Shown in pieces: positions 3,459 to 63,807 of a DNA stretch of 64,000 nucleotides (its first letter is position 1; each line of letters starts with the position of its first letter). The translations under genes and the position numbers were made by a program. Source of the stretch: Candidatus Limnocylindria bacterium (GTDB lineage Bacteria > Patescibacteriota > Saccharimonadia > Saccharimonadales > JAGQNK01); assembly GCA_035489815.1 (NCBI GenBank), contig DATHJH010000005.1:20406-84405 (forward strand), read 5' to 3'. The notes beneath the pieces were generated by a model that saw only the letters and a list, made by a program, of their open reading frames with translations, was not told the origin of the DNA and made no database searches.

Positions 3459-3554
3459 CTCAAAACTTCCCCTCTGCCAGCACCCCAATCAAGTTGAGGG
3501 CAGGCTATCCAGCTTGACTGGGGGGAATGACGGTGGAGGGGTTGGGGTTTTGAG
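3459..3554. repeat. nested palindromic intergenic repeat, copy 1
   Basis: Left arm ctcaaaacttcccctc...ccccaatcaag pairs with right arm cttgactgggg..ggaatgacggtggaggggttggggttttgag. The same arms recur at 6473, 23254 and 43588. Confidence 0.8.
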
Positions 3555-6421: not shown

Positions 6422-6472
6422 CCATAGCCACGCACCACAAAAGCTCTATACGCAAGCATAGCTTGCCTGAGT

Positions 6473-6540
6473 CTCAAAACCCCCAATCCTGTCATACCGG
6501 ATCAAGCTGGGGATAACAGAGGAGGGGTTGGGGTTCTGAG
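6473..6540. repeat. nested palindromic intergenic repeat, copy 2 (short)
   Basis: ctcaaaacccccaatcctgtcatacc...ggataacagaggaggggttggggttctgag. Lies about 25 nt upstream of the receiver gene. Confidence 0.8.
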
Positions 6541-6565: not shown

Positions 6566-6964
6566 ATGGACGAACCAACCACACCCACCGCCACTACAGC
6601 CAAAAAAGTCCTCTGTATAGAGGACGAGCATTTCATAAACGAACTCTACGCCCGGGCCCTTACCAAAGCCGGCTACCAAGTAAAGGTAGTCATAGATGGC
6701 GAAGAGGGCCTGCGCGAGGCACTGACCAACGCCTATGACATCATCTTGCTCGACATTATGCTGCCCAATCTCATAGGTACAGAGGTACTCAAGCGGCTAC
6801 GGGCCCAGCTCCCGGATCTCAGAGCCAAAATCATCATCACCACCAACCTGGAGTTAGGGGAAGAAGACCGGGCCGCCATAGAAGCCCAAGCCGATGGCTA
6901 TATAGTAAAAGCCGACCTCACCCCCCGCCAAATGGCCGAATTCCTCCAGCAGCTTGAGGTCTAA
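6566..6964 (+). CDS. single-domain response regulator (receiver only)
   Basis: 132 aa. CheY-like pattern (VLCIEDE, ILLDIMLP, TTN, K near the C-terminus). Its stop codon TAA lies inside the left inverted repeat of the IS. Confidence 0.9.
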   Translation: MDEPTTPTATTAKKVLCIEDEHFINELYARALTKAGYQVKVVIDGEEGLREALTNAYDIILLDIMLPNLIGTEVLKRLRAQLPDLRAKIIITTNLELGEEDRAAIEAQADGYIVKADLTPRQMAEFLQQLEV

Positions 6965-7022
6965 GAACCCATCCAAAATCTCCCACAATAATTAATCCAA
7001 CCTGACAAGTAAGCTAGAAAAA

Positions 7023-7886: not shown

Positions 7887-7955
7887 GAGATTTTGGATGG
7901 GTTCTTAGAACTATCCAAGGTCTCTCTTCCAGGGAGAGGAGGTTTGGGATGGGCT

Positions 7956-8525
7956 CTAAGGATCGGGCACTCCTTCAGTAAGCGCATCCAACACCGTAGT
8001 CGCCACTGCACCGGCCAGCCGGGCAAGTCTTTCCACGTCAGTATCAAAGCCCATGACCAACTCCTGCATTGTCCAGCTTTGAGGAGAAGAAGGGTCACTA
8101 TGGTCAAAGATATAGCCTGTTTCCATGGGACGAAAGGCACGTTCGTTAAAGGGCAACCCGGCCGAGAGCCTGTAATCATTCGAGCCAGGCGGACCAGCAA
8201 AAACTTGAACTATTACGTGGCCTCTTTGTGGCCAGATCCTTACAAACTCATCTCCTGCAGTTCTGTCCATACGCCTATTTGGCACCCGCGTTTGGTCTTC
8301 AAAGATCGCATCAATATCTCTGCCGTATACATCCGCGTGAGGCCAGATAGCCCCCACAATAGTCGGCCCTAGAGAGACCGGGAGTCCCAGCTTTTCGTAT
8401 ACCTCAAGCCCGTAGGTGCTGATGGTTTGCAGCTTTGCCTGTGCTTTACGCGCATCACCGGCCGTTACCCCTCTTGGAAATTCGCCTTTTGGTATACGAT
8501 GCCAGAAAGGGAAGTCTTCACTCAT
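7956..8525 (-). CDS. hypothetical protein
   Basis: 189-aa ORF. No motif recognised. Confidence 0.5.
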   Translation of the reverse strand: MSEDFPFWHRIPKGEFPRGVTAGDARKAQAKLQTISTYGLEVYEKLGLPVSLGPTIVGAIWPHADVYGRDIDAIFEDQTRVPNRRMDRTAGDEFVRIWPQRGHVIVQVFAGPPGSNDYRLSAGLPFNERAFRPMETGYIFDHSDPSSPQSWTMQELVMGFDTDVERLARLAGAVATTVLDALTEGVPDP

Positions 8526-8710: not shown

Positions 8711-9049
8711 ATGTATTACGAAAATCCCCAGGGCGTCTCTGTGCACGGTGGGTTTCCCAACCCAGCCACAGACGCCAGCCTCCAAGGCATTGATCTCAAC
8801 AAGTTATTAGTCCAAAACAGCGTCAGCACCTATCTGATGCGCATTGCCGGTAATGAATGGCAGGCGCTGGGCATTTTTGCTGGCGACATTATCATTGTGG
8901 ACCGAGCACTCGGGGCACACAAAACCGACCTGGTTATATGGGTCCAGGGCAGTGACCTGGCTATTTCGACCCGTCATACCGTACCCAAGGACGCACAGGT
9001 ATGGGGCGTAGTCACCAGTGTCATCCACCAGTACAGGAGGCAATCATGA
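8711..9049 (+). CDS. UmuD'-like protein (S24-peptidase fold, catalytic dyad apparently absent)
   Basis: GGFPNPATD...IDLNKLLVQN..TYLMRIAGNEW..GIFAGDIIIVD aligns by eye with E. coli UmuD CGFPSPAADY..IDLNQLLIQH..TYFVKASGDSM..GISDGDLLIVD. The Ser of GDSM is Glu here, and the Lys position reads STR. Confidence 0.7.
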   Translation: MYYENPQGVSVHGGFPNPATDASLQGIDLNKLLVQNSVSTYLMRIAGNEWQALGIFAGDIIIVDRALGAHKTDLVIWVQGSDLAISTRHTVPKDAQVWGVVTSVIHQYRRQS

Positions 9050-9068
9050 GCCGTATTGCCTCCACACC

Positions 9069-9098
9069 TGTCATTCCCGACTTGATCGGGAATCCGGT
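9069..9098. repeat. short hairpin related to the palindromic repeat core
   Basis: tgtcattcccgacttgatcgggaatccgg shares the gtcat.cc core motif. Lies between the umuD-like and umuC-like genes. Confidence 0.5.
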
Positions 9099-9161
9099 CA
9101 AAAACAAAGTCATTATAAATCCTTCGGTCAGGCCAAGCACAGCAGAAAGCGGGGGCAAGCA

Positions 9162-10445
9162 ATGAAAAATCCCGTCTTTGCCCTGATTGACTGCAATAAC
9201 TTCTTTGTCAGCTGCGAACGTGTTTTTCGCCCCGACCTCGCCACCAAACCAGTTGCCGTACTTTCCAGCAATGACGGCTGCGTCGTGGCCCGGAGTAACG
9301 AAGTCAAGGCGCTTGGCATCCCTATGGCGGCCCCGGCATTCAAGTACCGGGAAATCTTTGACCGCCACGGCATAGTGAAGTTCAGCGCCAACTTTGAACT
9401 CTACGGCAATATGTCGCGGCGCATTACCGAGCTGCTGACCACCATCACCCCGCGCATAGAAGTCTATTCCGTGGATGAATCGTTCCTGGACCTCAGCCAG
9501 CTGGATATCCGGGACCACACAGCGTGGGGGCATAAGGTCCGGGAATCCATCCTCCAGTGGACTGGCCTCCCCGTATCTATAGGGATCGCACCCAGCAAGT
9601 CCCTGGCCAAACTGGCCAGTGACCGCGGCAAGAAAGTACCAGCTCTTGATGGTGTACTAAGTTTGATGGGCAACCCAGAAACAGACTGGCATTTGAGCCA
9701 AGTACCCGTGGGCGACGTCTGGGGCATTGGCTGGCGGCTAGCGCCTAAAATGAGGGCAGAGGGGGCGGGCACGGCCCTGCACCTGGCTCAACTCAGCCCC
9801 CAGCGGGCCCAGCAGCTCATGGGCATCCGCGGCCGGCAGTTGGTGGCGGAACTAAACGGCATCAGTTGCTTTCCGCTAGATCTAGAGCACCAAAAACCCA
9901 AAAGCATCCTACGCAGCCGAACGTTCGGAGAAGACACCTCTCTAGCCAGCGTGATAGAAGCCGCCCTAGCATCGTTTGCTACCACGGCTGCTTTTCGTTT
10001 ACGACGCAGCAGCCAACTGGCCCGCAGGGCAGGAATATTCCTAGATACCAACAAACACAAACCCGGTTTCCGCCGCTGGAGCAGGGAAGTCATCTATCAG
10101 GTACCAACCGCAGACACGGGACAACTCATTAGCGACACCATAAACCTATTCAGCCAAATCTACAGCCCCAGAATGTCCTACCACAGAGCAGGGGTGTGGC
10201 TAGGTGATTTCAGGCCGGCAGACTATCTGCAAACAGACCTGCTGGGCGCCATAGATCCGGCCAAGCATGATCGAGCCCAAGCCCGCATGCAAGCCGTAGA
10301 CGTCCTAAATGAAAGATTCGGAAAACGCACCATCCGCTACGCCACCGAGGACCTTGCCCAAAAATGGCAACCCCGGCACCACACCCGCAGCCCCCGCTAC
10401 ACCACCCGCCCGGACGAACTGCCCACGGCAAAAATAGTGCCATGA
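9162..10445 (+). CDS. umuC: Y-family DNA polymerase, UmuC-like
   Basis: From the internal Met: MKNPVFALIDCNNFFVSCERVFRPDL..PVAVLSSNDGCVVARS..YSVDESFLDL closely parallels the UmuC N-terminus. The upstream part of ORF 9018.. overlaps a repeat and looks non-coding. Confidence 0.85.
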   Translation: MKNPVFALIDCNNFFVSCERVFRPDLATKPVAVLSSNDGCVVARSNEVKALGIPMAAPAFKYREIFDRHGIVKFSANFELYGNMSRRITELLTTITPRIEVYSVDESFLDLSQLDIRDHTAWGHKVRESILQWTGLPVSIGIAPSKSLAKLASDRGKKVPALDGVLSLMGNPETDWHLSQVPVGDVWGIGWRLAPKMRAEGAGTALHLAQLSPQRAQQLMGIRGRQLVAELNGISCFPLDLEHQKPKSILRSRTFGEDTSLASVIEAALASFATTAAFRLRRSSQLARRAGIFLDTNKHKPGFRRWSREVIYQVPTADTGQLISDTINLFSQIYSPRMSYHRAGVWLGDFRPADYLQTDLLGAIDPAKHDRAQARMQAVDVLNERFGKRTIRYATEDLAQKWQPRHHTRSPRYTTRPDELPTAKIVP

Positions 10446-10511: not shown

Positions 10512-10590
10512 GGCCTCACCGTCTAACGCTTCGGGTAATCATGAGGTACCGGGTAATCTGGTGTCGTGACCGCTGGACAAGGTAGTTACT
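10512..10590 (+). repeat. tRNA-Glu-derived sequence, copy A1 (mini-helix-like)
   Basis: The 30-nt ggcctcaccgtctaacgcttcgggtaatca mimics the tRNA 5' acceptor and D arm. It is followed directly by tgaggtacc, which resembles the 3' acceptor strand. Confidence 0.6.
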
Positions 10591-10609: not shown

Positions 10610-10688
10610 GGCCTCACCGTCTAACGCTTCGGGTAATCAATAGACACCAGGAAACCTGGTGGCATAACCGTTAGACAGTGGCTACCCT
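10610..10688 (+). repeat. tRNA-Glu-derived sequence, copy A2 (pseudo-tRNA-like)
   Basis: Identical 30-nt 5' block, then gacaccagg-aaa-cctggtg: the tRNA anticodon stem with a collapsed loop. Then ccgttagac, which pairs with gtctaacg. Confidence 0.6.
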
Positions 10689-10707: not shown

Positions 10708-10782
10708 GGCCTCATCGTCTAACGGTTAGGACACCAGGTTCTCATCCTGGCAATCGGGGTTCGATTCCCCGTGAGGTCACCA
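10708..10782 (+). tRNA. tRNA-Glu (anticodon CUC), CCA encoded
   Basis: Hand-folded cloverleaf: acceptor GGCCTCA/TGAGGTC, D arm GTCT-AACGGTTA-GGAC, anticodon arm CCAGG-TTCTCAT-CCTGG, T arm CGGGG-TTCGATT-CCCCG, then ACCA. Confidence 0.85.
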
Positions 10783-10916
10783 TACGGAACAATCAATTTT
10801 CAGAGAAGAAGGAAGTTTCCAGAAATATTCCTTCTTTTCTTCTTATGACCAATGCGCTAACCCCACCTCTGTTAGTCTGAGTTTCGGTTCCTTTAGGGCG
10901 GTAGCTATGCTTTTGT

Positions 10917-10925
10917 TGGTATAAT
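10917..10925 (+). promoter_or_regulatory. extended -10 element TGGTATAAT
   Basis: Ends 8 nt before the ATG at 10934 with no room for an SD, implying a leaderless or near-leaderless mRNA. Confidence 0.45.
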
Positions 10926-10933
10926 GGCTCCTG

Positions 10934-11365
10934 ATGTATATTGCAAATAAAGGTGCCTACCAGAAGCTTGCACATATCCGGTTGGATGAGGCCAAGCTGC
11001 TATTTGCGCAAGGACACTACTGCGGCGCTTTCTACCTTACGGGTTACTCTATTGAATGTGCACTGAAAGCAAAGATTGCAAAAAATTTACGAAAGATTGA
11101 TATCCCCGACCACAAAGTAGTAGAAAAGCACTTCACCCATAATTTACAGGATCTGCTTAGTCAGTCTGAGTTAAATGCAAAGCTTGGTAGGGCCTCCAAG
11201 CGAAACTCTCAACTTAGCGTAAACTGGGATATTATTGCAGGGTTGAATGGGTGGAGTGAAGAAAGTCGCTATAATGAGAGTGTGACAGAAGCAGAAGCCC
11301 AAAAGCTCCTAAATGCTGTTGATGATCCTAAAAATGGAATACTACAATGGATAGAAAAGAACTAA
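10934..11365 (+). CDS. HEPN-domain protein
   Basis: 143 aa. YSIECALKAKIA ... THNLQDLL ... EESRYNE matches the E..LKA / H.L..L / R.Y pattern of classical HEPN domains. Confidence 0.65.
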   Translation: MYIANKGAYQKLAHIRLDEAKLLFAQGHYCGAFYLTGYSIECALKAKIAKNLRKIDIPDHKVVEKHFTHNLQDLLSQSELNAKLGRASKRNSQLSVNWDIIAGLNGWSEESRYNESVTEAEAQKLLNAVDDPKNGILQWIEKN

Positions 11366-11730
11366 GAGAAGATTATATTGAATTGGGCAAAAAAGTCTTA
11401 GAAGGGCTTAATTCTGATTTTGCCGTCACTTCGGCATTTTGGTTCTTACTACCTGATTCTGGCTGGCGTTTTGTAGTTGCAACTCCCGTCTTAGACAGGG
11501 ATGGTCCCGCTAAGGCCTACGAGACGCTTCAAACTAAATTATCCGCAATACTAGGAACAGACAACTCATTCATTAATAATGTGTCGGTTGTTAGCCCAAG
11601 TAATTCTCTAATTAAATTGTTAAAGTCTGCTATAAATACAGGGCCTGATTCTATATCAGGGATTAGATTCACTGGGAACGTTATCAACAGCCAGTATATA
11701 GAGGGTGCCTACATATATCGCATTTCTTAA
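11347..11730 (+). CDS. hypothetical protein, translationally coupled partner of the HEPN gene
   Basis: 127 aa. Overlaps the HEPN gene by 19 nt. No nucleotidyltransferase GS..D.D motif seen. Confidence 0.5.
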   Translation: MDRKELREDYIELGKKVLEGLNSDFAVTSAFWFLLPDSGWRFVVATPVLDRDGPAKAYETLQTKLSAILGTDNSFINNVSVVSPSNSLIKLLKSAINTGPDSISGIRFTGNVINSQYIEGAYIYRIS

Positions 11731-11792
11731 GCTTCGGTTCTAAAGGTCGTCACCCTAAGCGAATTTAAATTCTAGAGACAACTCCGGCAAGG

Positions 11793-12350
11793 CTAACTTT
11801 GCTTGAGGTAGTGATTAAGAATAATAGGGAGCAGCTTCAGGGACAATTCTCTGCTATAACTCAATATCCAAGCCAAAGATTTGCTTATTTTACTCCAATC
11901 GGCGTGTGGCTTTTCAATCTCGGTTTTTATCTCTTTTAGCTTTTCTTTTTCTTCTTTTGTTTGGGCGCTTTCAATGAGATTATCGATCGAAAAGTTAATT
12001 TTAATGTCAATGTTACTGGTATTTTGATTGTTAACGATTATCGCAGCTTGCGATTGCTGTTGGTTTGGGTCAAACTCAAATTCTGCATTAAGCTGATTCA
12101 CAATTCCACTCAGCTTCATCTTGACGAGAGATCCATCGAATCCGTATTCGTTAAATGTATATTCGCTACGCTCAACTTTGAAATGTGAGTAGTCGTTTCT
12201 GGCTACTGTGGATAGCTCGTCGCATATCTTATCCAATCTTTCGGCAATGTGGGTGGGAGCGTTAAAGCCGCTGGGTTCGGGGATAGTGTCGAGATAGCCC
12301 CTTAGCTCAGCGTAGAATCGTTTAACTTTTGCTCTATCTATGTCTGCCAT
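11793..12350 (-). CDS. hypothetical protein (third gene of Shedu-like operon)
   Basis: 185 aa. Its start overlaps the upstream gene's end by 13 nt. Asn/Gln-rich middle and a Lys/Glu-rich helix. Confidence 0.5.
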   Translation of the reverse strand: MADIDRAKVKRFYAELRGYLDTIPEPSGFNAPTHIAERLDKICDELSTVARNDYSHFKVERSEYTFNEYGFDGSLVKMKLSGIVNQLNAEFEFDPNQQQSQAAIIVNNQNTSNIDIKINFSIDNLIESAQTKEEKEKLKEIKTEIEKPHADWSKISKSLAWILSYSRELSLKLLPIILNHYLKQS

Positions 12351-12637
12351 CGCTTCAAAAGCTCCTCTGTGTGTTTAAGTTTTTCAATAAGGCGTTTTCT
12401 TTCAGCTTCAAGGTTGGACCAAAGCTGTTGCTCTGGATGTCTTTGATTCAGCAGATCGTGAAACTCGTTCAAGGCTATGCCAGCCTTAGTCCGCCATTTA
12501 GAGTATTCGAGCAGCTCCTTTTCGGTAGTAATCTTGCCTAGTTTGCCTTGCTCAACCCAATGGGCGAGACTCAATCGGCGAGCTTTTTGCTGAAGTTCTC
12601 GAAATTCTGCCAGCTTCCTTTTAATATCTTCTTCCAT
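12338..12637 (-). CDS. hypothetical helical protein (second gene of Shedu-like operon)
   Basis: 99 aa, charged coiled-coil-like. Starts 4 nt after the upstream stop. Confidence 0.5.
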   Translation of the reverse strand: MEEDIKRKLAEFRELQQKARRLSLAHWVEQGKLGKITTEKELLEYSKWRTKAGIALNEFHDLLNQRHPEQQLWSNLEAERKRLIEKLKHTEELLKRWQT

Positions 12638-12640
12638 CGA

Positions 12641-13909
12641 TCACCCCTTCGCTTTATCGCCCATAATAATTTGGCGAAGTCCTTTCAGCTTGTGCAACAC
12701 CTCGTCGAAGGTAACTATCTCTACGTCCTTGCTGTTACTGCGAAGAAGTTCAAACGACTTGCGCTGTTTGGCGGACATTCCTTTGAGCATCCCAGCTACG
12801 ACGACGCATTTTGGATTGTAGGCTTCAAAGGCCTCCTCAGAGTTGCTACGTAGGTTGTAGAATTCTTTTTGTAGATTATCTCTTTGATCAAGAACCTGGT
12901 TGGTCGCGCCGCTCAACTCTTTATCTGCAGCAAATACATCATTTCCACGATATATTTGTTTTTTGAGCAAGGGAGTTCGATGGGTCTTGATCTCAATGAT
13001 GGCGACATTGTCTGTAAATTTGTTTTTATAGATAAAGTCGGTGACCTTGCCTTTCTTGTTGTCTATGCCCTTACCCCCTACGTAAGCCTTGTCCTGAAAG
13101 AATAAAACTGCAGATGTGAATAGTTGCGAAAAAATCCAGTTATACTTTTTGAAAAACTTTTGCCACTTTTCTTCCAGGCCATCAGTCTCAGTCTTTTGTT
13201 TTAGGAGTTCCTCAAATTCTTCTATAACGGCCTCGATATAAAACTCTTCAATTCTTTCTCGTGTCCTGAGAACAGCGCCCTCGTTATCAAGCAGATTGTC
13301 CTGAGCAGTCTTTTGTGCCAACCCAAGAATCGCATCTACGTCACCCGCTGACAACATTTCTGGTGTGATTTTACTGCGGTGTATATAGGCTCCAAGCCCA
13401 CCACCCACATATTTCACTTTTGGTGGTTTAAAGTCGGCAGGAAAAAGCGATGACAAGGAGACGGCTGCCTGAATATTTAACTCTTTTGAATGTCTGTCAA
13501 AAAGGGCGGATAGCTTCGGAAACTCTTGATCGAGTCTTTTGGCGTTGATGACTATCCTTGTGGGCCCTATGACACTGGGAAGATTCGGACTAATGACTAG
13601 CTCCTCAAGCTGACGGTCCTCAAACAGCACATTAGCCAATCGAGATAGGATTCGAGTGAATCCGTATCCACGACCCGGTGCTGTACTGAAACCCCGTTGA
13701 AGCTCGTCGGGCATATCTTTGAATACGAAACGCTTCACAGGATATTTCGGCTGACCGTCTCTGCGGAAGGGGTAGTGGATTACTTGTTCTCTGGTCTTGA
13801 AGACTTCTCGCGACTTAACTCGGATGTTATTGCGCTCGTCAATATATTCGTAGACCGTTTTCGTCTTCAGGTCTTTAGCGATTGTCTCGTATGGTTTTCT
13901 TGGTTTCAT
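12641..13909 (-). CDS. Shedu-like nuclease (SduA/DUF4263-type C-terminal domain)
   Basis: 422 aa. The C-terminal half carries a PD-(D/E)xK-like core GKVTDFIY...VAIIEIKTHRTPLL, then NQVLDQRDNL and VVVAGM...VEIVTFDEV, as I recall for DUF4263. Confidence 0.6.
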   Translation of the reverse strand: MKPRKPYETIAKDLKTKTVYEYIDERNNIRVKSREVFKTREQVIHYPFRRDGQPKYPVKRFVFKDMPDELQRGFSTAPGRGYGFTRILSRLANVLFEDRQLEELVISPNLPSVIGPTRIVINAKRLDQEFPKLSALFDRHSKELNIQAAVSLSSLFPADFKPPKVKYVGGGLGAYIHRSKITPEMLSAGDVDAILGLAQKTAQDNLLDNEGAVLRTRERIEEFYIEAVIEEFEELLKQKTETDGLEEKWQKFFKKYNWIFSQLFTSAVLFFQDKAYVGGKGIDNKKGKVTDFIYKNKFTDNVAIIEIKTHRTPLLKKQIYRGNDVFAADKELSGATNQVLDQRDNLQKEFYNLRSNSEEAFEAYNPKCVVVAGMLKGMSAKQRKSFELLRSNSKDVEIVTFDEVLHKLKGLRQIIMGDKAKG

Positions 13910-14097
13910 CCTACCTTTATTTTACGCCTACAGAATATGCCTTAGCAACGTTATTGACTCGAAAGCAAAAAGCATAAGCAGTATGACACTCCAAGGGTAG
14001 CGAATCTCTGAGTCGTTTCTCCAGGCTTAGAATGCGAGGACATATGGTATTCCAGTTTTTGGCCCTGTGGGGCACTTTTCTTGGTTATTTCTTGAGC

Positions 14098-14259
14098 ATC
14101 GAACCCCGATTGCCCAATCGGGCGAGAACAGCCGGTGCTGTTCGCAAGGAAGCCTTCCGAGGGCAACTGGTTGCCATACGCGCAAGTTTCGGGCTCGCTG
14201 AAGGTGAGTCGATCCCCCGTGAGGTCACCAGTATTTTTCGACAACTACTTAATCTTGGC
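14098..14259 (+). repeat. structured repeat R1, carrying two tRNA-Glu fragments
   Basis: 14098-14114 is the reverse complement of tRNA ggcaatcggggttcgat (17/17). 14208-14230 matches the tRNA 3' end ttcgattccccgtgaggtcacca at 21/23. The remainder aligns with R2 at 15001. Confidence 0.7.
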
Positions 14260-14293
14260 ATAATTGCCAGGCTCTTGTATATGTAATACACTG

Positions 14294-14302
14294 TGTTACA
14301 AT
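14294..14302 (+). promoter_or_regulatory. extended -10 element TGTTACAAT
   Basis: Ends 6 nt before the brnT ATG, implying a leaderless transcript. Confidence 0.4.
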
Positions 14303-14308
14303 CGACAT

Positions 14309-14590
14309 ATGGTGCAATACGACTGGAACGATGCCAAAAGCCGCCAGCTCAAACAGCGTCATGGCGTTAGCTTTCAGGATATCAAGGCTGCTATAGGCTC
14401 CGGCCACCTACTCGATGACATAGAGCACCACAACCCCCACACCTACCCTCATCAGCGGATTCTAGTTGTCGCCGTCAATAACTATGTATATGTCGTTCCC
14501 TACGTCCGTAACGGCACTATCACATTTCTCAAGACAATTTATCCTAGCCGTAAATTAAACAAAAGGTATCAAAGGAGTAAGTCACCATGA
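14309..14590 (+). CDS. brnT: BrnT-family toxin (DUF497)
   Basis: From the internal Met: MVQYDWNDAKSRQLKQRHGVSFQDIKAA...RILVVAVNNYVYVVPY is typical of BrnT. Overlaps the antitoxin gene by 4 nt. Confidence 0.8.
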   Translation: MVQYDWNDAKSRQLKQRHGVSFQDIKAAIGSGHLLDDIEHHNPHTYPHQRILVVAVNNYVYVVPYVRNGTITFLKTIYPSRKLNKRYQRSKSP

Positions 14591-14856
14591 CCCAAAGCGA
14601 CCTCACTAAAGAAGAGCAAGAAGACCTTCGGGTTATAGAAGATGCTATAGAAAAAGGAGAGTATCGCTCTGTCCTTACACCGGAGCGCCGCCGCGAATTA
14701 GAGCAAGCCGCGAGCAAGCCGCGCGAGCGCAAACAATTGGTGACACTTAGGGTAGCACCGGCCGACCTAGCTAAGCTCAAGCGCAAGGCCGAACATGAAG
14801 GCTTGGCCCCCACTACTTACATGGCCTCAGTGTTGCACAAGACAGCTGTGCAGTAG
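14587..14856 (+). CDS. brnA: BrnA-type antitoxin (RHH/CopG-like C-terminus)
   Basis: 89 aa. VTLRVAPADLAKLKRKAEHEGLAPTTYMASVLHK resembles a ribbon-helix-helix, and the gene is paired with brnT. Confidence 0.75.
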   Translation: MTQSDLTKEEQEDLRVIEDAIEKGEYRSVLTPERRRELEQAASKPRERKQLVTLRVAPADLAKLKRKAEHEGLAPTTYMASVLHKTAVQ

Positions 14857-14956
14857 CGCGTCGTTAATTCTAAGCTCTCCAGCTCCTTCTGCAAAAGATA
14901 TAGACCAGGCAGCAGAGAGTTCCACCTTTTATCCAGGTGGGTCACCAAATCAAGAG

Positions 14957-14979
14957 CCGGTCTGCAAAGACGGGTTTTT
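14957..14979 (+). terminator. rho-independent terminator after brnTA
   Basis: ccggtct-gcaa-agacggg followed by ttttt. Confidence 0.55.
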
Positions 14980-15000
14980 GATTGGTGTTTTCTGGAAATG

Positions 15001-15142
15001 ACCCCGATTGCCCAATCGGGTGAGACATGCCACAGGCATGTCTCAAGGAAACCTTCTGGGGCAAGCTGTGCTTGCCGCCGTGAAGTTTTCGGGCCTGTTG
15101 CATTGTGCCGCTACAATTTTTTACCTACTACTTAGCTCTTGC
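15001..15142 (+). repeat. structured repeat R2
   Basis: Shares accccgattgcccaatcggg.gaga, caagga.ccttc..gggcaa, aagttt(t)cgggc and ctacttaRctcttg blocks with R1. The intervening hairpins differ in sequence but stay perfectly paired. Confidence 0.7.
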
Positions 15143-15292
15143 GAAAGGGGCAAATCCGGATAGTTTTCGACTGGAAGACCCTCGCTTTGCTCGTGCCGAA
15201 AAGTATATGAAATTGTAGACAGAAAGTACTGTATAAAAATATACAGATGTTATTGACTACTGTATAGTTTTAGATGTAGACTATACAGTACT

Positions 15293-16399
15293 ATGGTTGA
15301 TCCAAAAAAACCGTTCAATAACCTTCCTACTCTTCCCCCAAAGAGCTTTCTGTTTGATGACTCGGCCATTCTCAAGGCTTCCATGAGTGCTTCCCAGGCC
15401 ATAGCATCACTAAATGCCACAATTCGGGCGGACGTGAGCAACGTTAATCATAGTCTGAATATGATGTCTCCGCTCTACGTGCCCGAAGCCGTTACAAGTT
15501 CCGGGGTTGAGAATATCATTACGACCAATGAACGAGTATACGAAGCCCGTTTGCTCGACGAAAACGATGTTAAACCCCAAGACAAAGAAGTCATGAGGTA
15601 TGTTGAGGCATTGGCTATGGGTATAGCCGAACTCGACAAGAGAGACTTCCTGGCCACAAACCAGTATATTGCTATTCAAAAAACCCTTGAGCCCTCAAAG
15701 ACAGGAATTCGCAAGATACCAGGAACGCAACTCTCAAATCCTAAAACCGGGCAAATTTACTACACGCCGCCAGATAATGAGCAGGATATTCGACGTTTGC
15801 TCAAAAACTTTGAAGAATATTTTAACGAAGAAGCGCCAAAGCACGAGATCTTTGCACGGGCTGCACTGCTACACTATCAGTTTGAAGCGATTCATCCTTT
15901 TCATGATGGCAATGGGCGTACGGGACGTATGCTTATACCTCTATACCTAACTAAGCAGAATGTCTTAGATGCGCCACTTTTATTTGTAAGTAAATTTATT
16001 CTTGAAAACAGAGACAACTACTACAAACTACTTCGAAATGTAACGTTTAAGGAAGACTGGAAGAGTTGGGTGCTCTATATGCTCGAAGCTTTTGAGCGGC
16101 AGGCCGAATACACGCTGGCCGTTCTCGGCAAGATAGATTTCTTCAAGAAGAAGCTTGAGAAAAAGCTCAATGAGGTAATGGGGCATGCTTACGCTCATGA
16201 TATTACCCAATTCCTCTATAAGCATCCTTTCTTTACTCAGGCAGAGTTCGAGGGTGCTGTAGATGTGTCGTACGTAACCGCGAGAAAATACCTCAAGCTG
16301 CTTGAAACCGAAAGGATAGTAGCTAAAAAGAGACAGGCTAAGCGTAATCGTTACATCTACACTTGCCCCGAATATATTGTGCTTTTGAAAAAGTCATAA
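15293..16399 (+). CDS. Fic-family protein with C-terminal winged-helix-like region
   Basis: 368 aa with the canonical Fic motif HPFHDGNGRTGR. Confidence 0.9.
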   Translation: MVDPKKPFNNLPTLPPKSFLFDDSAILKASMSASQAIASLNATIRADVSNVNHSLNMMSPLYVPEAVTSSGVENIITTNERVYEARLLDENDVKPQDKEVMRYVEALAMGIAELDKRDFLATNQYIAIQKTLEPSKTGIRKIPGTQLSNPKTGQIYYTPPDNEQDIRRLLKNFEEYFNEEAPKHEIFARAALLHYQFEAIHPFHDGNGRTGRMLIPLYLTKQNVLDAPLLFVSKFILENRDNYYKLLRNVTFKEDWKSWVLYMLEAFERQAEYTLAVLGKIDFFKKKLEKKLNEVMGHAYAHDITQFLYKHPFFTQAEFEGAVDVSYVTARKYLKLLETERIVAKKRQAKRNRYIYTCPEYIVLLKKS

Positions 16400-23187: not shown

Positions 23188-23253
23188 GAGTAGGGAAACC
23201 CTAAACACGAAGCCCTAAATCCTAAACAAATTCAAATATCTAATACCTATAGT

Positions 23254-23380
23254 CTCAAAACCTCCAATCCCGTCATACCGGGCCTGACCCGGTATCCTCA
23301 AATAAAGAAAATTAACTATTGTATCTACTACTGGATTCCCGGGTCTAGTTGGGAATGACGGTGGAGGTTGGGGTTTTGAG
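23254..23380. repeat. nested palindromic intergenic repeat, copy 3
   Basis: ctcaaaacctccaatcccgtcataccggg ... gggaatgacggtggaggttggggttttgag. Sits inside a second, imperfect outer inverted repeat. Confidence 0.8.
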
Positions 23381-23499
23381 GGTCAGGTTCTGATGATCAA
23401 AATATAAAACAGGCTGCCCTTGAAGCTGTTTGGAACATTTGGATTTTGAAATTATTTAGAGTTTAGGTATTAGGATTTAGGATTTCTAGTCGTTAGACT

Positions 23500-26310: not shown

Positions 26311-26829
26311 ATGCAAGGGGCTTCATCCGATGATAAATCTTTTTTTACACTGAAAGCTGAGCGTACCCACCTGCCTGGTGTACCTGGCGTAGATACCAGC
26401 AACCCCCCTTATGATTGCCTTGTGTACCTTGATATTTACGGAGGTCAATTACAAGCTATACCCGGCGAAGACGAAACAGCCACCCTTGAATACGATGGGC
26501 CTTTACATCGTGTTCTAGCCACCCTTGTCTTAGCCGACGAAACAAATCCAAAAACTCTCCAAATATTCGATCGCATAGAAAGAGAGAAGCCCGGGACACA
26601 AGCGAGGGTACACCTTAAGGCTGATCATGCGTACGACTCGCTGGTGAGCGCCCTCTATAATACTCATCCTAATAATCCCAGAATGGTCGATGTGGCAGGC
26701 TTGGCGGTAGCCGAAACGCTTGATACATTACGGACCTTCACTTTCGAACACTACGAGAACACAGTCGCGACTCTCATCGATCGGGCACTCACTCCTCTTA
26801 CAGAAAGAGCGGAACCTTTGAACCCCTGA
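26311..26829 (+). CDS. hypothetical protein
   Basis: 172-aa ORF. No motif recognised. Confidence 0.45.
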   Translation: MQGASSDDKSFFTLKAERTHLPGVPGVDTSNPPYDCLVYLDIYGGQLQAIPGEDETATLEYDGPLHRVLATLVLADETNPKTLQIFDRIEREKPGTQARVHLKADHAYDSLVSALYNTHPNNPRMVDVAGLAVAETLDTLRTFTFEHYENTVATLIDRALTPLTERAEPLNP

Positions 26830-27213
26830 AGTCGAGGCTAGCAGGTGATTGGGCACAGATATGAAAACAGGCCTCCGAGAGGGTGAGAACAGCCTGTGGC
26901 CGTTCGCAAGGCCGGAAGCCCGGATGGCAAAGCCACCGAGCTGAGGTGGGGCCGACCGCATTTTCAAAGAAAATGACGGGTGGCTGGGCACGCACACTAA
27001 AAAGAGCCTGTAGAGGGGGTGGGCACCGCTACAGGCTCATTTCAGGAGTCAACCCTAAAGTTGACTCCATACCCTTCAACCCACCCCGGTGTAAGCGTCG
27101 ATGTCCAAAACTCTATAAAGACTCGCGCCGTTCCGACAGACGGAACGTACTTGCATACTCACCTTGAATGGGGACCAACTCAGCCAAAGCTAAGAAGGGC
27201 TAGTTAAAGGGAA
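26830..27213 (+). other. densely structured non-coding segment (candidate ncRNA, identity unresolved)
   Basis: No credible ORF. Perfect hairpins at 26933-26949, 26959-26975, 27004-27038, 27045-27068 and 27129-27147. Segment 26885-26911 matches repeat R1 (14124-14149) at 23 of 27 positions. Confidence 0.4.
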
Positions 27214-27374
27214 TAGACTTCTCCCCGGATAAATCTTGGAGTCAAATACGATGATTGCTGATGCAGTGACCGGACTGGCGAGTAATGCGTAACCATAGTT
27301 ACTCAGCATGAGTCAGGGCGGTCAGTGCGCAGCAAGGGCGTATTTGAACCAGGACTTATCTGGGGAGGAGTCTA
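27214..27374 (+). ncRNA. 161-nt long imperfect hairpin (candidate sRNA, or a MITE-like palindrome)
   Basis: The outer 26-nt arms pair with 22 Watson-Crick, 3 G-U (valid on the + strand only) and 1 mismatch. Apex hairpin gtaac-cata-gttac at about 27295. Confidence 0.35.
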
Positions 27375-27668
27375 CTAGTTTGTTTTAGAACGCCGTCTCC
27401 TTCCTTTGCAGGTGAGACAACGCTAAAAATAAGTGGAGGGTAACAACTCATAGTCAGCACGTTCTAAAACAATCTAACAAAATTAAGATGACTATAAGTC
27501 ATCTCTGTTAGAATAGGGGGTATAAGGTGCGTAAACCCCTTATGTGGGATTCACAGTTTGCTATTCTAGCAGAATTATATTCTTTGTCAACACCTTTTTG
27601 TGTTAAGTTCAAATAAATTTACTTGTAAACATAAGCTTTACCCCTTATAGATCCTTTTTTGACGTCGT

Positions 27669-28526
27669 ATGAAAATATATAAGATTTCATATAACTCGGA
27701 TGACTTTCCGTCAACCCTCAGGCATATACCAAGCCCGCCGAAAGAGCTGTATATTTTAGGCGACCTGGGACCGCTCCTGGAAAAACCACTTCTGGCCGTC
27801 GTAGGCAGCCGCAAGGTCACCCCTTATGGCAGGAGCATTACGCTGGACCTGGTACGGGCGGTCGCCTCGCAACGGGTTGTCATCATCAGCGGCATGGCGC
27901 TGGGTGTCGACGCACTCGCTCACCAGGCAGCGCTGGAAGTAGGCGGCAAGACAATTGCCGTATTGCCCTGCGGCCTGGACAAACCCTATCCCGCCACCAA
28001 CCGTCAGCTTGCCCGGAAGATCCTGGAACAGGGCGGGGTACTTATGAGCGAGTACCCCGAAGGGACACCCCCGCTTATCCAGAACTTCATAGCCCGTAAT
28101 CGTCTGGAGTCGGGGATGAGTGACGGCGTATTAATTACCGAGGCAGCCATAAAAAGCGGCACTGTACATACTGCCAGGTTTGCACTTGAACAGGGCAAAA
28201 CCGTCATGGCCGTGCCGGGAAACATCACGAGTGAACTATCCAAAGGCACAAACAACCTCATTCGCAGCGGTGCCGTGCCGGTGACCAGGCCAGAAGATAT
28301 ATTTGAAGTGCTAGACATCATGGGTACACCAGAGGACCATGAAGTTGTAGCAGCCAATGCAGAAGAAGCCGCCATCCTGCAGCTTCTCAAACAAGGTATT
28401 ACCGACAGCAGTATCCTGCAAACTTCCAGCCAGCTGGAAGTAGTCGTATTTAATCAGACCCTCACCATGCTGGAGCTAACTGGCAAGATTCGTCCTTTGG
28501 GTGCGGGCCACTGGTCGCTGGCTTAA
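27669..28526 (+). CDS. dprA: DNA-processing protein DprA (Smf)
   Basis: 285 aa. LAVVGSRKVTPYG...IISGMALGVDALAHQAAL...VLPCGLD...FIARNR are typical DprA Rossmann-fold motifs. Confidence 0.9.
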   Translation: MKIYKISYNSDDFPSTLRHIPSPPKELYILGDLGPLLEKPLLAVVGSRKVTPYGRSITLDLVRAVASQRVVIISGMALGVDALAHQAALEVGGKTIAVLPCGLDKPYPATNRQLARKILEQGGVLMSEYPEGTPPLIQNFIARNRLESGMSDGVLITEAAIKSGTVHTARFALEQGKTVMAVPGNITSELSKGTNNLIRSGAVPVTRPEDIFEVLDIMGTPEDHEVVAANAEEAAILQLLKQGITDSSILQTSSQLEVVVFNQTLTMLELTGKIRPLGAGHWSLA

Positions 28527-43587: not shown

Positions 43588-43708
43588 CTCAAAACCCACC
43601 CCTGTCATCCCCCAATCAAGCCCAGGGTCAAGCCGGAGGATCTGGTAGTAAAAAAACTGGATTGTCTGGTCAAGCCAGACAATGACAGTGGAGCAGTGGG
43701 GTTTTGAG
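43588..43708. repeat. nested palindromic intergenic repeat, copy 4
   Basis: ctcaaaacccacccctgtcatcccccaatcaagcc ... caatgacagtggagcagtggggttttgag. Confidence 0.8.
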
Positions 43709-43745
43709 ATTCAGGTACTTTCCTTCTTGGACTTGTTTGCGCGAC

Positions 43746-46091: not shown

Positions 46092-46336
46092 TTTATATGG
46101 TCAAAGTATAAGTAGTCGGTTTGACATAGAATGTGAGAATTCTTACTCCAGAACCTGTTCTAAGAACCTGTCCACAATCTCCAATCCCGTCCCAAAATCA
46201 CCCATTCTGACGTCAATACACCCCAGCTCCCCAGCCGTACCTATAGGTAGGATAGGAAACCTGGAACGAATTGCTATTGATTTTCTAAAAGAAAATGGAG
46301 CAATTTTGGGCTCGGGAGCGAGATTGTGAACAGGCT

Positions 46337-57887: not shown

Positions 57888-58082
57888 CTTAGAACCCATC
57901 CAAAATCTTTTCCTCTGACTCCGACCCTTCTCCGTATAGAAGTTCACATGCAACCCAACTGCCTTCTTATTGACTATAGCTCCGAAGGGTACCTACCCGG
58001 GTACCTTTCAGACCAAAAAACAGCCGGCTCACATCCGAAAGGTGGTCTCGGCAAGGAGAAAAGATCCTGGATGGGTTCTTAG
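57888..58082. mobile_element. 195-bp MITE-like derivative of the IS5-family element
   Basis: Ends cttagaacccatccaaaatct and agatcctggatgggttcttag match the IS terminal repeats (6961/7886). No coding capacity between them. Confidence 0.65.
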
Positions 58083-63776: not shown

Positions 63777-63807
63777 CTAAGAACCCATCCAGGAGAAAGG
63801 GTCTTAG
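63777..63807. repeat. collapsed IS-end remnant (both terminal repeats, no interior)
   Basis: ctaagaacccatcca (15/15 identical to the IS left end) followed 7 nt later by gggtcttag, which resembles the right end. Confidence 0.5.

Follow-up and report, generated by a model that had tools for sequence, protein, structure and literature searches.

This report concerns a pair of structured repeats, R1 and R2, that bracket a toxin-antitoxin pair in a 64-kb stretch of contig DATHJH010000005.1 (hereafter the window), together with a distant third copy, R3 (26862–26995, plus strand). R1 and R2 are direct repeats on the plus strand, lying on either side of brnT (14309–14590) and brnA (14587–14856). A 19-mer, CCCCGATTGCCCAATCGGG, occurs exactly twice in the window (at 14104 and 15002), where shuffled sequences are expected to hold none, and a motif of GGGYGAGA, a hairpin, TCNCAAGG and GGCAA has three copies on the plus strand, at 14121, 15019 and 26882. 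The original prediction, made from the sequence alone, had described this flanking arrangement, a set of blocks shared by R1 and R2, two hairpins that differ in sequence yet remain paired, and a 27-nt echo of R1 at 26885–26911. All four observations hold. The hairpins concerned, P2 and the tip of P3 in the fold described below, differ throughout between R1 and R2, and each is still paired; the echo falls within R3. A covariance model (CM) matches R1 (14120–14219) at 63.4 bits with E 6e-11, R2 (15018–15111) at 58.5 bits with E 5.5e-10, and R3 (26881–26923, the P2 part only) at 29 bits with E 5e-4, the E-values being rough, and no further significant match appears within the 64 kb. The structured repeats R1 and R2 are homologous to each other and, with more divergence, to R3, and all three belong to a Saccharibacteria-wide family of structured non-coding modules that accompany tRNA genes.

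The family was collected by two pattern scans. A three-block pattern run over 185,579 species genomes returned at least 118 stretches. About 30 of the matches listed are true, with the first gap forming a hairpin, and nearly all of these lie in metagenome-assembled genomes (MAGs) of Saccharibacteria. The remaining matches, about three quarters of those listed, are chance occurrences in coding genes; the hairpin test separated them, and they were reused as negative controls for the CM. A stricter pattern run on metagenome contigs gave 46 loci with 48 cores, essentially all true. The comparison loci retrieved carry L-numbers here, and 8–20 kb was viewed for each. The CM was built from 26 Saccharibacteria loci, with the window sequence excluded. 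It finds 101 copies in 557 kb of Saccharibacteria loci and no significant match in 652 kb of control loci carrying the bare sequence pattern, so that the search for further homologs by CM proposed in the original prediction yields at least 100 copies in Saccharibacteria contigs. The element was not seen in the IMG/VR viral contigs, where a tighter pattern gave four matches, all in phage coding genes; the matches listed from a looser scan of viral contigs included chance matches and were set aside.

The consensus fold was derived with RNAalifold from the 26 genome copies, again with the window sequence excluded. The module is about 95–100 nt long and forms a junction of three hairpins, P2, a long P3 and P4, closed by a stem of GGG with CCC. 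P2 has the form UG-A-GA NNNNCC with an NGU loop, P3 ends in GGCAAC...UUGCC, and P4 is GUCGCG-GAA-CGUGAC. There are 37 base pairs, 18 of which show changes on both sides among the 26 copies. Because one alignment (A3) was fitted to the CM, the covariation statistics were computed on the MAFFT alignment (A2). In this alignment, 97.1% of cells are paired versus 84.5% in shuffles, and 102 cells carry double changes versus 22.9±3.6 in shuffles, with none of 500 shuffles reaching 102. Sliding the structure along the alignment gives at most 13 double-change cells. The covariation expected of a structured RNA in general is therefore statistically supported by both the shuffle and the slid-structure controls, and the proposal that selection acts on single-strand structure is confirmed. 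The G-U pairs are kept on the plus strand, for instance in 23 of 26 copies at pair 81–89, and so the fold is strand-specific. The local hairpin AAGG-AAR-CCTT of the original prediction can always pair, and it shows zero double changes; a long-range helix that uses the same AAGG and CCUU bases has double changes in 11, 3 and 2 sequences at three of its pairs. Folded as single sequences, R1 gives a weak signal (z −1.1) and R2 only a moderate one (z −3.3), and for this reason the structural case is taken from covariation instead. Public gene calls place an 84-aa open reading frame (ORF) across R1 (14032–14286, plus strand) and a 53-aa ORF across R2 (14942–15103, minus strand). Homologs differ by indels that are not multiples of three and covary in the stems, so these ORFs are not genes.

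The statement that the repeats match no known RNA family also stands. An Rfam 15 scan of the window at gathering thresholds returns only tRNA-Glu (10708–10782), and at E up to 10 the regions 13900–15300 and 26700–27750 give only chance-level matches. On 19 related loci, Rfam reports tRNA, rRNA and RNase P only. Known ribozymes and riboswitches are excluded by the lack of any Rfam match at E up to 10. Transfer-messenger RNA (tmRNA), a tRNA with an intron and an insertion in rRNA are likewise excluded, as ARAGORN and Rfam show intact tRNAs beside the units and no tmRNA or large-subunit rRNA there. Literature searches among the available papers found no description of the element. A paper on tRNA introns in Patescibacteria identified group I introns by way of the anticodon loop and never mentions the T-loop.

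Outside the window, the place of the module is best described from a typical unit. An intact tRNA gene is followed by its terminator, a spacer of about 20 nt, an inverted copy of the tRNA from variable loop to T-loop, a direct copy of the variable loop and the 5' strand of the T-stem up to T54, the module, and a second direct copy of the tRNA from C56 through the 3' strand of the T-stem and the acceptor strand to CCA. This right-hand copy often runs about 40 nt further, through the tRNA's terminator. The module starts with GAGA directly after ...GGGT and ends just before C56; therefore, the GGG and CCC of the T-stem close it. The junctions are fixed at T54 and C56, and the module in effect takes the place of the T-loop in a partial tRNA copy. 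The inverted and direct copies on the left form a leader hairpin, P1, in 64 of 99 units. Since the leader is built from copies of the neighboring tRNA, the 7-bp hairpin that had been singled out as shared by R1 and R2 is target-specific: it is present in both, as stated, and it was copied from a neighboring tRNA-Glu rather than being a conserved part of the element.

The intact gene in the window is tRNA-Glu(ctc), at 10708–10782 on the plus strand by both ARAGORN and Rfam, and the flanking sequences of the R1 and R2 cores derive from it. In a Hamming scan, the left part of the R1 leader hairpin (14098–14123) at 14098–14113 is the exact reverse complement, with no mismatch, of the tRNA-Glu segment GCAATCGGGGTTCGAT, and 14115–14122 is a direct copy of CAATCGGG, the variable loop and 5' strand of the T-stem. 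The core follows at 14120–14219, a GGG...CCC stem enclosing P2, the long P3 and P4. At 14210–14230 stands the copy of the tRNA end from T-loop C56 to CCA, CGATCCCCCGTGAGGTCACCA, which differs from the gene's own end (10762–10782) at 1 of 21 positions. Beyond it lies a flank, F1 (ATTTTTCGACAACTACTTAATCTTGGC, 14233–14271), which is common to R2 and runs into a terminator-like hairpin at 14254–14271. To the left of the leader, a terminator-like hairpin with a T-run (14061–14084) and a spacer, TTATTTCTTGAGC (14085–14097), precede R1. From the 3' arm of this hairpin through the spacer, the sequence and that of the tRNA-Glu(ctc) unit in L261 are nearly the same, and the alignment to that unit continues through the leader and core. 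Further left, 13993–14023 (AAGGGTAGCGAATCTCTGAGTCGTTTCTCCA, plus strand) is tentatively recognized by eye as a decayed tRNA 3' fragment; its position equals that of the decayed tRNA fragments in L261 and L289. For R1, 3337 nt separate the tRNA from the core, versus 65–83 nt elsewhere.

R2 lies behind a different tRNA gene. A decayed 3' half of tRNA-Glu (…CCAGG…GTGGGTCACCA, 14905–14947, plus strand, with GGTCACCA at 14940–14947) aligns to the tRNA-Glu(ttc) locus of L264 and is the former partner of R2. It is followed by a terminator hairpin that starts at CCA (14945–14985) and a spacer (14986–15001), both recognized by their match to the L264 unit; together, these upstream parts are about 95% identical to that unit. 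Then come the R2 leader hairpin (15002–15020), the core (15018–15111) and a flank, F2 (15116–15142), homologous to F1. R2 lacks the P4, T-loop and acceptor end present in R1. By these alignments, R1 is the unit of tRNA-Glu(ctc) and R2 the unit of a now-decayed tRNA-Glu(ttc). The two tRNA-Glu genes have a common T-arm, and hence the leader hairpin is identical in R1 and R2. Identity between the two Glu cores is 97% in the metagenome of L264. Three points had been missed: that the shared hairpin comes from tRNA-Glu, that 14210–14230 copies the tRNA 3' end, and that R1 and R2 derive from two different tRNA-Glu units. Just 5' of tRNA-Glu(ctc), there are also two 68-nt direct repeats (10512–10579 and 10610–10677). 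Each opens with a copy of the tRNA 5' end (GGCCTCACCGTCTAACG, 2 mismatches) and continues into tRNA-like pieces, ACACCAGGAAACCTGGTG among them. The repeats resemble decayed 5' tRNA copies left by earlier events at a hot spot, and a similar fragment precedes tRNA-Glu in the relative L245.

The association with tRNA genes is general. The core sits 65–83 nt past an intact co-oriented tRNA in 19 of 31 genome loci (among the matches listed) and in roughly 25 of the 46 metagenome loci. A census took in 79 tRNAs and is biased, because it covers only loci picked for carrying a core; of these tRNAs, 45 have a core downstream, 11 have one just upstream and 26 have neither; about 20 isoacceptors are represented among those with a downstream core. 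The upstream position is a second arrangement: about 130 nt separate the core from the intact tRNA that follows it, and a copy of the 5' part of this tRNA, together with its -10 box, stands ahead of the core (L250, L251, L263, L278 and L285). Nested or tandem modules are found in L260, L293, L266, L216, L230, L270 and L267, and tandem units also in L292, L182 and L253. Some modules stand in other conserved RNA-like contexts, in the L262 group and in L180 and L223. All-against-all BLAST of the neighboring ORFs found no protein gene or family recurring beside the cores. A promoter scan gave no convincing promoter for the units, and none is evident in the short spacer.

R3 is one of the copies outside a tRNA. 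It is a diverged module, starting with GAGAAC at 26885, inserted after GGGT (26881–26884) in a partial copy of a hairpin, of which the left arm (26862–26884) and a right remnant, TGGGCACGCAC (26985–26995), are left. An intact copy of this target hairpin, AAAAAGAGCCTGTAG AGGGGGTGGGCACCG CTACAGGCTCATTT, follows at 26999–27042 (plus strand) and opens a conserved RNA-like region. The locus is orthologous to L252, with the order Der-Pth-core-DprA-TopA, and the site is filled in the window, L252 and L267, the last having two interrupted hairpin copies ahead of the intact one. In L247 and L248, which are closer relatives by UmuC (78% and 75%) and have Pth upstream in each case, the same hairpin is uninterrupted at the same place: GAGAGGGGGT runs directly into GGGCACC, in a context of CCTCCGAGAGGGGGT joined to GGGCACCGCTCG. 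The comparison reads as a filled and an empty version of one site. The rule common to R3 and the tRNA units would be that the module inserts directly behind GGGT in a hairpin loop and that an intact copy survives next to it. The RNA-like region itself consists of conserved non-coding blocks at 26999–27540, within an 840-nt gap (26830–27668) between pth and dprA, and is common to L252, L267, L247 and L248. Its first block is the hairpin, with a loop, GGGGGUGGG, that is able to base-pair with CCCACCCC some 60 nt downstream, suggestive of a pseudoknot. Among the later blocks is GTTAAAGGG. Rfam has no match here, and the region may be an undescribed RNA. Spurious mir-927 matches on both strands fall on a long inverted repeat at 27369–27483 (GTTTGTTTTAGAACG ... 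CGTTCTAAAACAA). Two other repeats are dispersed in the window. A GC-rich one, GGGAATGACGGTGGAGGGGTTGGGGTTTTGAG, occurs with its reverse complement at 3523–3554, 6470–6540, 23251–23382 and 43678–43709, as close inverted pairs at gene ends that resemble repetitive extragenic palindromic or terminator elements. A 21-nt one, CTAAGAACCCATCCAAAATCT, occurs in both orientations at 6961–6981, 7888–7960, 46160–46180, 57888–57908, 58062–58082 and 63777–63797.

The genes around R1 and R2 form a low-GC island (10.9–17.2 kb) directly past tRNA-Glu(ctc), with HEPN, three unannotated ORFs, Shedu SduA, BrnT/BrnA, SoFic and a short-chain dehydrogenase; its defense genes (HEPN, Shedu SduA, BrnTA and SoFic) span 10934–16399. 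The part between the tRNA and the R1 unit (10783–13992), delimited by composition, Pfam and PADLOC, holds a HEPN gene (PDC-M28A-like, 10934–11365, by Pfam); an ORF of 127 aa without a family match (11347–11730) that overlaps the end of the HEPN gene and may be its partner; two unannotated ORFs on the minus strand (11793–12350 and 12338–12637); and SduA (12641–13909, minus strand, PADLOC E 4e-77). The brnTA pair (14309–14856, plus strand, Pfam BrnT) has a promoter-like site of its own at 14264–14292 in the promoter scan. Exact-protein matches of BrnA and SduA are found only in the source genome. Neither Pfam nor the defense-system scan detects a recombinase or integrase gene in 10.8–17.2 kb, and no integrase recurs near units elsewhere. 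The brnTA pair and the Shedu/HEPN cargo are islands lodged at a tRNA hot spot and not parts of the element.

Other tRNA genes with units have received islands too. The tRNA of L261 and its unit stand 1.9 kb apart, the cargo between them being a ParE/RelE-like toxin, an RHH antitoxin and a dehydrogenase. In L289, a 13.5-kb element carrying a large serine recombinase, an FtsK-like protein and an AAA_25 protein lies between the intact tRNA-Arg(ccg) and its unit series, and after it come a decayed tRNA 3' fragment, terminator, spacer, leader hairpin, core and near-perfect acceptor copy. The large serine recombinase islands of L289 and L245 are insertions separate from the units. Their recombinase genes overlap the tRNA 3' end (L245 12197–13774 at tRNA-Glu, L289 12147–13829 at tRNA-Arg), which suggests that such Saccharibacteria islands restore the tRNA 3' end with sequence that lies inside the integrase gene. 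In the window, L261 and L289 alike, the acceptor copy beside the core is near-perfect and the displaced tRNA fragment is decayed; from this we infer either selection on the unit or its renewal by gene conversion. At tRNA-Glu, the window's closest relative (83% UmuC) carries a different serine-recombinase island and lacks a unit, and the relatives at 78% and 75% UmuC have a tRNA-Glu(ctc) with neither island nor unit. The tRNA-Glu(ctc) gene is on the opposite strand relative to umuC in the window (10708) compared with L247 (12460–12534) and L248 (11774–11848), which places an inversion end point at the tRNA. The source contig is labelled 'Candidatus Limnocylindria' (Chloroflexota) at NCBI, and an exact database match of its UmuC (9018–10445) bears this label too. 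Its gene order, closest labelled homologs and RNA family point to Saccharibacteria, and most labelled relatives are assigned to Saccharibacteria or Patescibacteria, apart from a single further Limnocylindrales label. Misclassification of the MAG is probable.

Several known systems resemble the module in part. Integrative elements leave direct repeats of the tRNA 3' end (attL and attR) and accrete in tandem, as do integrase-less cis-mobilizable elements. The units resemble those of tRNA-gene integrative elements in that an intact tRNA is followed by a second T-loop-to-CCA copy, a direct repeat of the tRNA 3' segment bounds the inserted DNA, islands stack at the same tRNA and the crossover is in the T-loop; the same arrangement recurs in at least 19 loci. 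They differ in that the DNA between the repeats is usually only about 150 nt and encodes no protein, that it contains a covarying three-hairpin junction and an inverted T-arm copy, that the duplication often includes the terminator, and that integrase islands, where present (L289 and L245), lie beside the unit and not around it. Integration in the T-loop is described for phage Ms6 (PMC1762012). When set against miniature inverted-repeat transposable elements, the inverted T-arm copy lies left of the module, is target-derived and varies in length, and the duplication, of 20–110 nt, contains the insertion rather than flanking it. Rickettsia palindromic elements and rRNA intervening sequences are structured insertions inside genes that form self-contained folding domains. 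Like them, the module is compact, self-folding, located at the tip of an RNA-gene hairpin, capable of nesting and present in many copies per small genome; unlike them, it always sits in a redundant partial copy beside an intact gene, has a sequence-specific junction after GGGT and has flanks that match the tRNA. The bridge or seek RNA of IS110 and the omega RNA of IS200/605 are element-encoded guides. They share with the unit a structured non-coding scaffold at the element end and, to either side of the insertion point, segments that are identical to the target or complementary to it. Here, however, there is no recombinase or TnpB gene, the matching segments are 8–25 nt and outside the scaffold, and there is no sequence or Rfam similarity. 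Viral tRNA-like structures and the bacterial Y-RNA-like YrlA are tRNA-like RNAs. The unit likewise carries a T-stem, part of a T-loop, the acceptor 3' strand and CCA, but it has no acceptor 5' strand and no D-arm, its T-loop is replaced by the 95-nt junction, and it has no Rfam match.

The reading we prefer, to which we give an even chance of being correct, is that the module is a mobile or formerly mobile, non-autonomous structured insertion element of RNA genes. Of the three roles originally suggested for the repeats, a small mobile structured element is thus the nearest, with its mobility being the inferred part. The module would land after GGGU in a hairpin loop, usually the T-loop, and would persist only where insertion brings a partial duplication of the target that leaves an intact gene copy. 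The fold would be that of the sense strand, with RNA a likelier form than single-stranded DNA, and would be the feature recognized by a proposed trans-acting machinery. The filled and empty R3 sites, the unit-free tRNA-Glu(ctc) of L247 and L248, the nested and tandem modules and the several non-tRNA hosts all have the look of insertion. It is unlikely, though worth stating, that the element carries its own guides, the sense and antisense target-copy flanks around T54 and C56 directing a trans-acting recombinase or reverse transcriptase into GGGU hairpin loops and copying the target transcript up to its terminator. Several points weigh against insertion as the explanation. No mobilizing enzyme was identified, and neither an excised form nor any recent identical copies came to light. 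Across species, units at one and the same tRNA are more alike than units at different tRNAs (0.76 versus 0.67 identity), and clearly orthologous units exist (L156, L190 and L210; L125 and L133), a pattern that fits long residence by vertical descent and perhaps a role in the host. The retention of units at many tRNA genes in small streamlined genomes is a further argument for function. The inverted T-arm copy and the duplication ending at the terminator are without a demonstrated mechanism, and with no promoter evident in the short spacer, the status of the units as RNA is predicted and unproven.

Taken together, the likeness at the same tRNA, the orthology and the many occupied tRNA genes in very small genomes make a host tRNA-partner RNA a serious rival, if a doubtful one in our estimate. 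Such an RNA would combine a mimic of the T-arm and acceptor-CCA end, an antisense to the T-arm and a three-hairpin platform for protein binding. It would be transcribed by read-through or from duplicated promoters, with possible roles in tRNA processing, in quality control or as a decoy for tRNA-targeting nucleases or integrases. Units occupy most tRNA genes in some contigs (three of four in L228; also L145), orthologous units are kept across species with compensatory changes, the acceptor copy past the core is retained while displaced copies decay, the sense-strand G-U pairs are conserved, units end at a terminator, and those of the upstream type carry a duplicated -10 box. A host role fits poorly with the absence of a unit at tRNA-Glu in close relatives, with an acceptor part that is decayed or missing in many copies (including R2, L156 and L147) and has no pairing partner for its stem, with nested or tandem modules in unrelated RNA contexts, and with the lack of any promoter found for units of the downstream type. 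Quite unlikely is a folded recombination site of the attC kind, in which a recombinase pairs the T-arm mimic with tRNA T-loops, and units delimit, capture and stack cassettes such as brnTA. Like attC sites, R1 and R2 are strand-specifically folding repeats around a promoter-bearing cassette with a junction at G^TT, exactly in the T-loop; cargo stands between repeated unit parts in both the window and L261 (there the ParE/RHH pair and dehydrogenase, between repeats of terminator, spacer and ATCGAAC); and large serine recombinase islands use the same tRNA genes. However, the islands of L289 and L261 lie between the tRNA and a pre-existing unit and are bounded by their own decayed tRNA fragment, so the unit is not the island's end. 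The fold is a branched three-hairpin junction and not the single imperfect, bulged hairpin of attC, without the R''/L''-L'/R' organization. An attC site would also have paired R''/R' (RYYYAAC...GTTRRRY) and L''/L' boxes and extrahelical bases; ATCGAAC and GTTCGAT agree with R boxes at 6 of 7 positions but are T-loop copies. No IntI or other integrase is linked to the units, the element is tied to tRNA genes, and there is no cassette array: brnTA has its own promoter-like site and is not flanked by units elsewhere, and most units hold no cargo. The suggested attC-like membership is accordingly not borne out. Neither is a role as a cis-acting RNA or antitoxin-like repeat of the brnTA module, which has only the local bracketing of brnTA in its favor and which we regard as extremely improbable. 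The closest brnT homologs (80% identity in L296 and 56% in L298–L300) have neither a unit nor a tRNA nearby, with no CM match at E up to 1 in L296–L300, and more than 100 units stand beside tRNAs without any toxin gene. The element follows tRNA genes, and its link to the toxin is positional only.

With this family, Saccharibacteria would gain a large and well-supported structured RNA class, in a candidate-phylum lineage whose genomes, of about 1 Mb, are expected to hold little non-coding DNA. It also bears on annotation, as gene callers at present translate the units as ORFs. The units make long direct and inverted repeats around tRNA genes and probably shape island accretion and rearrangements there. 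If it is true that the flanks guide insertion, the module would represent a compact, programmable route to T-loop targeting.

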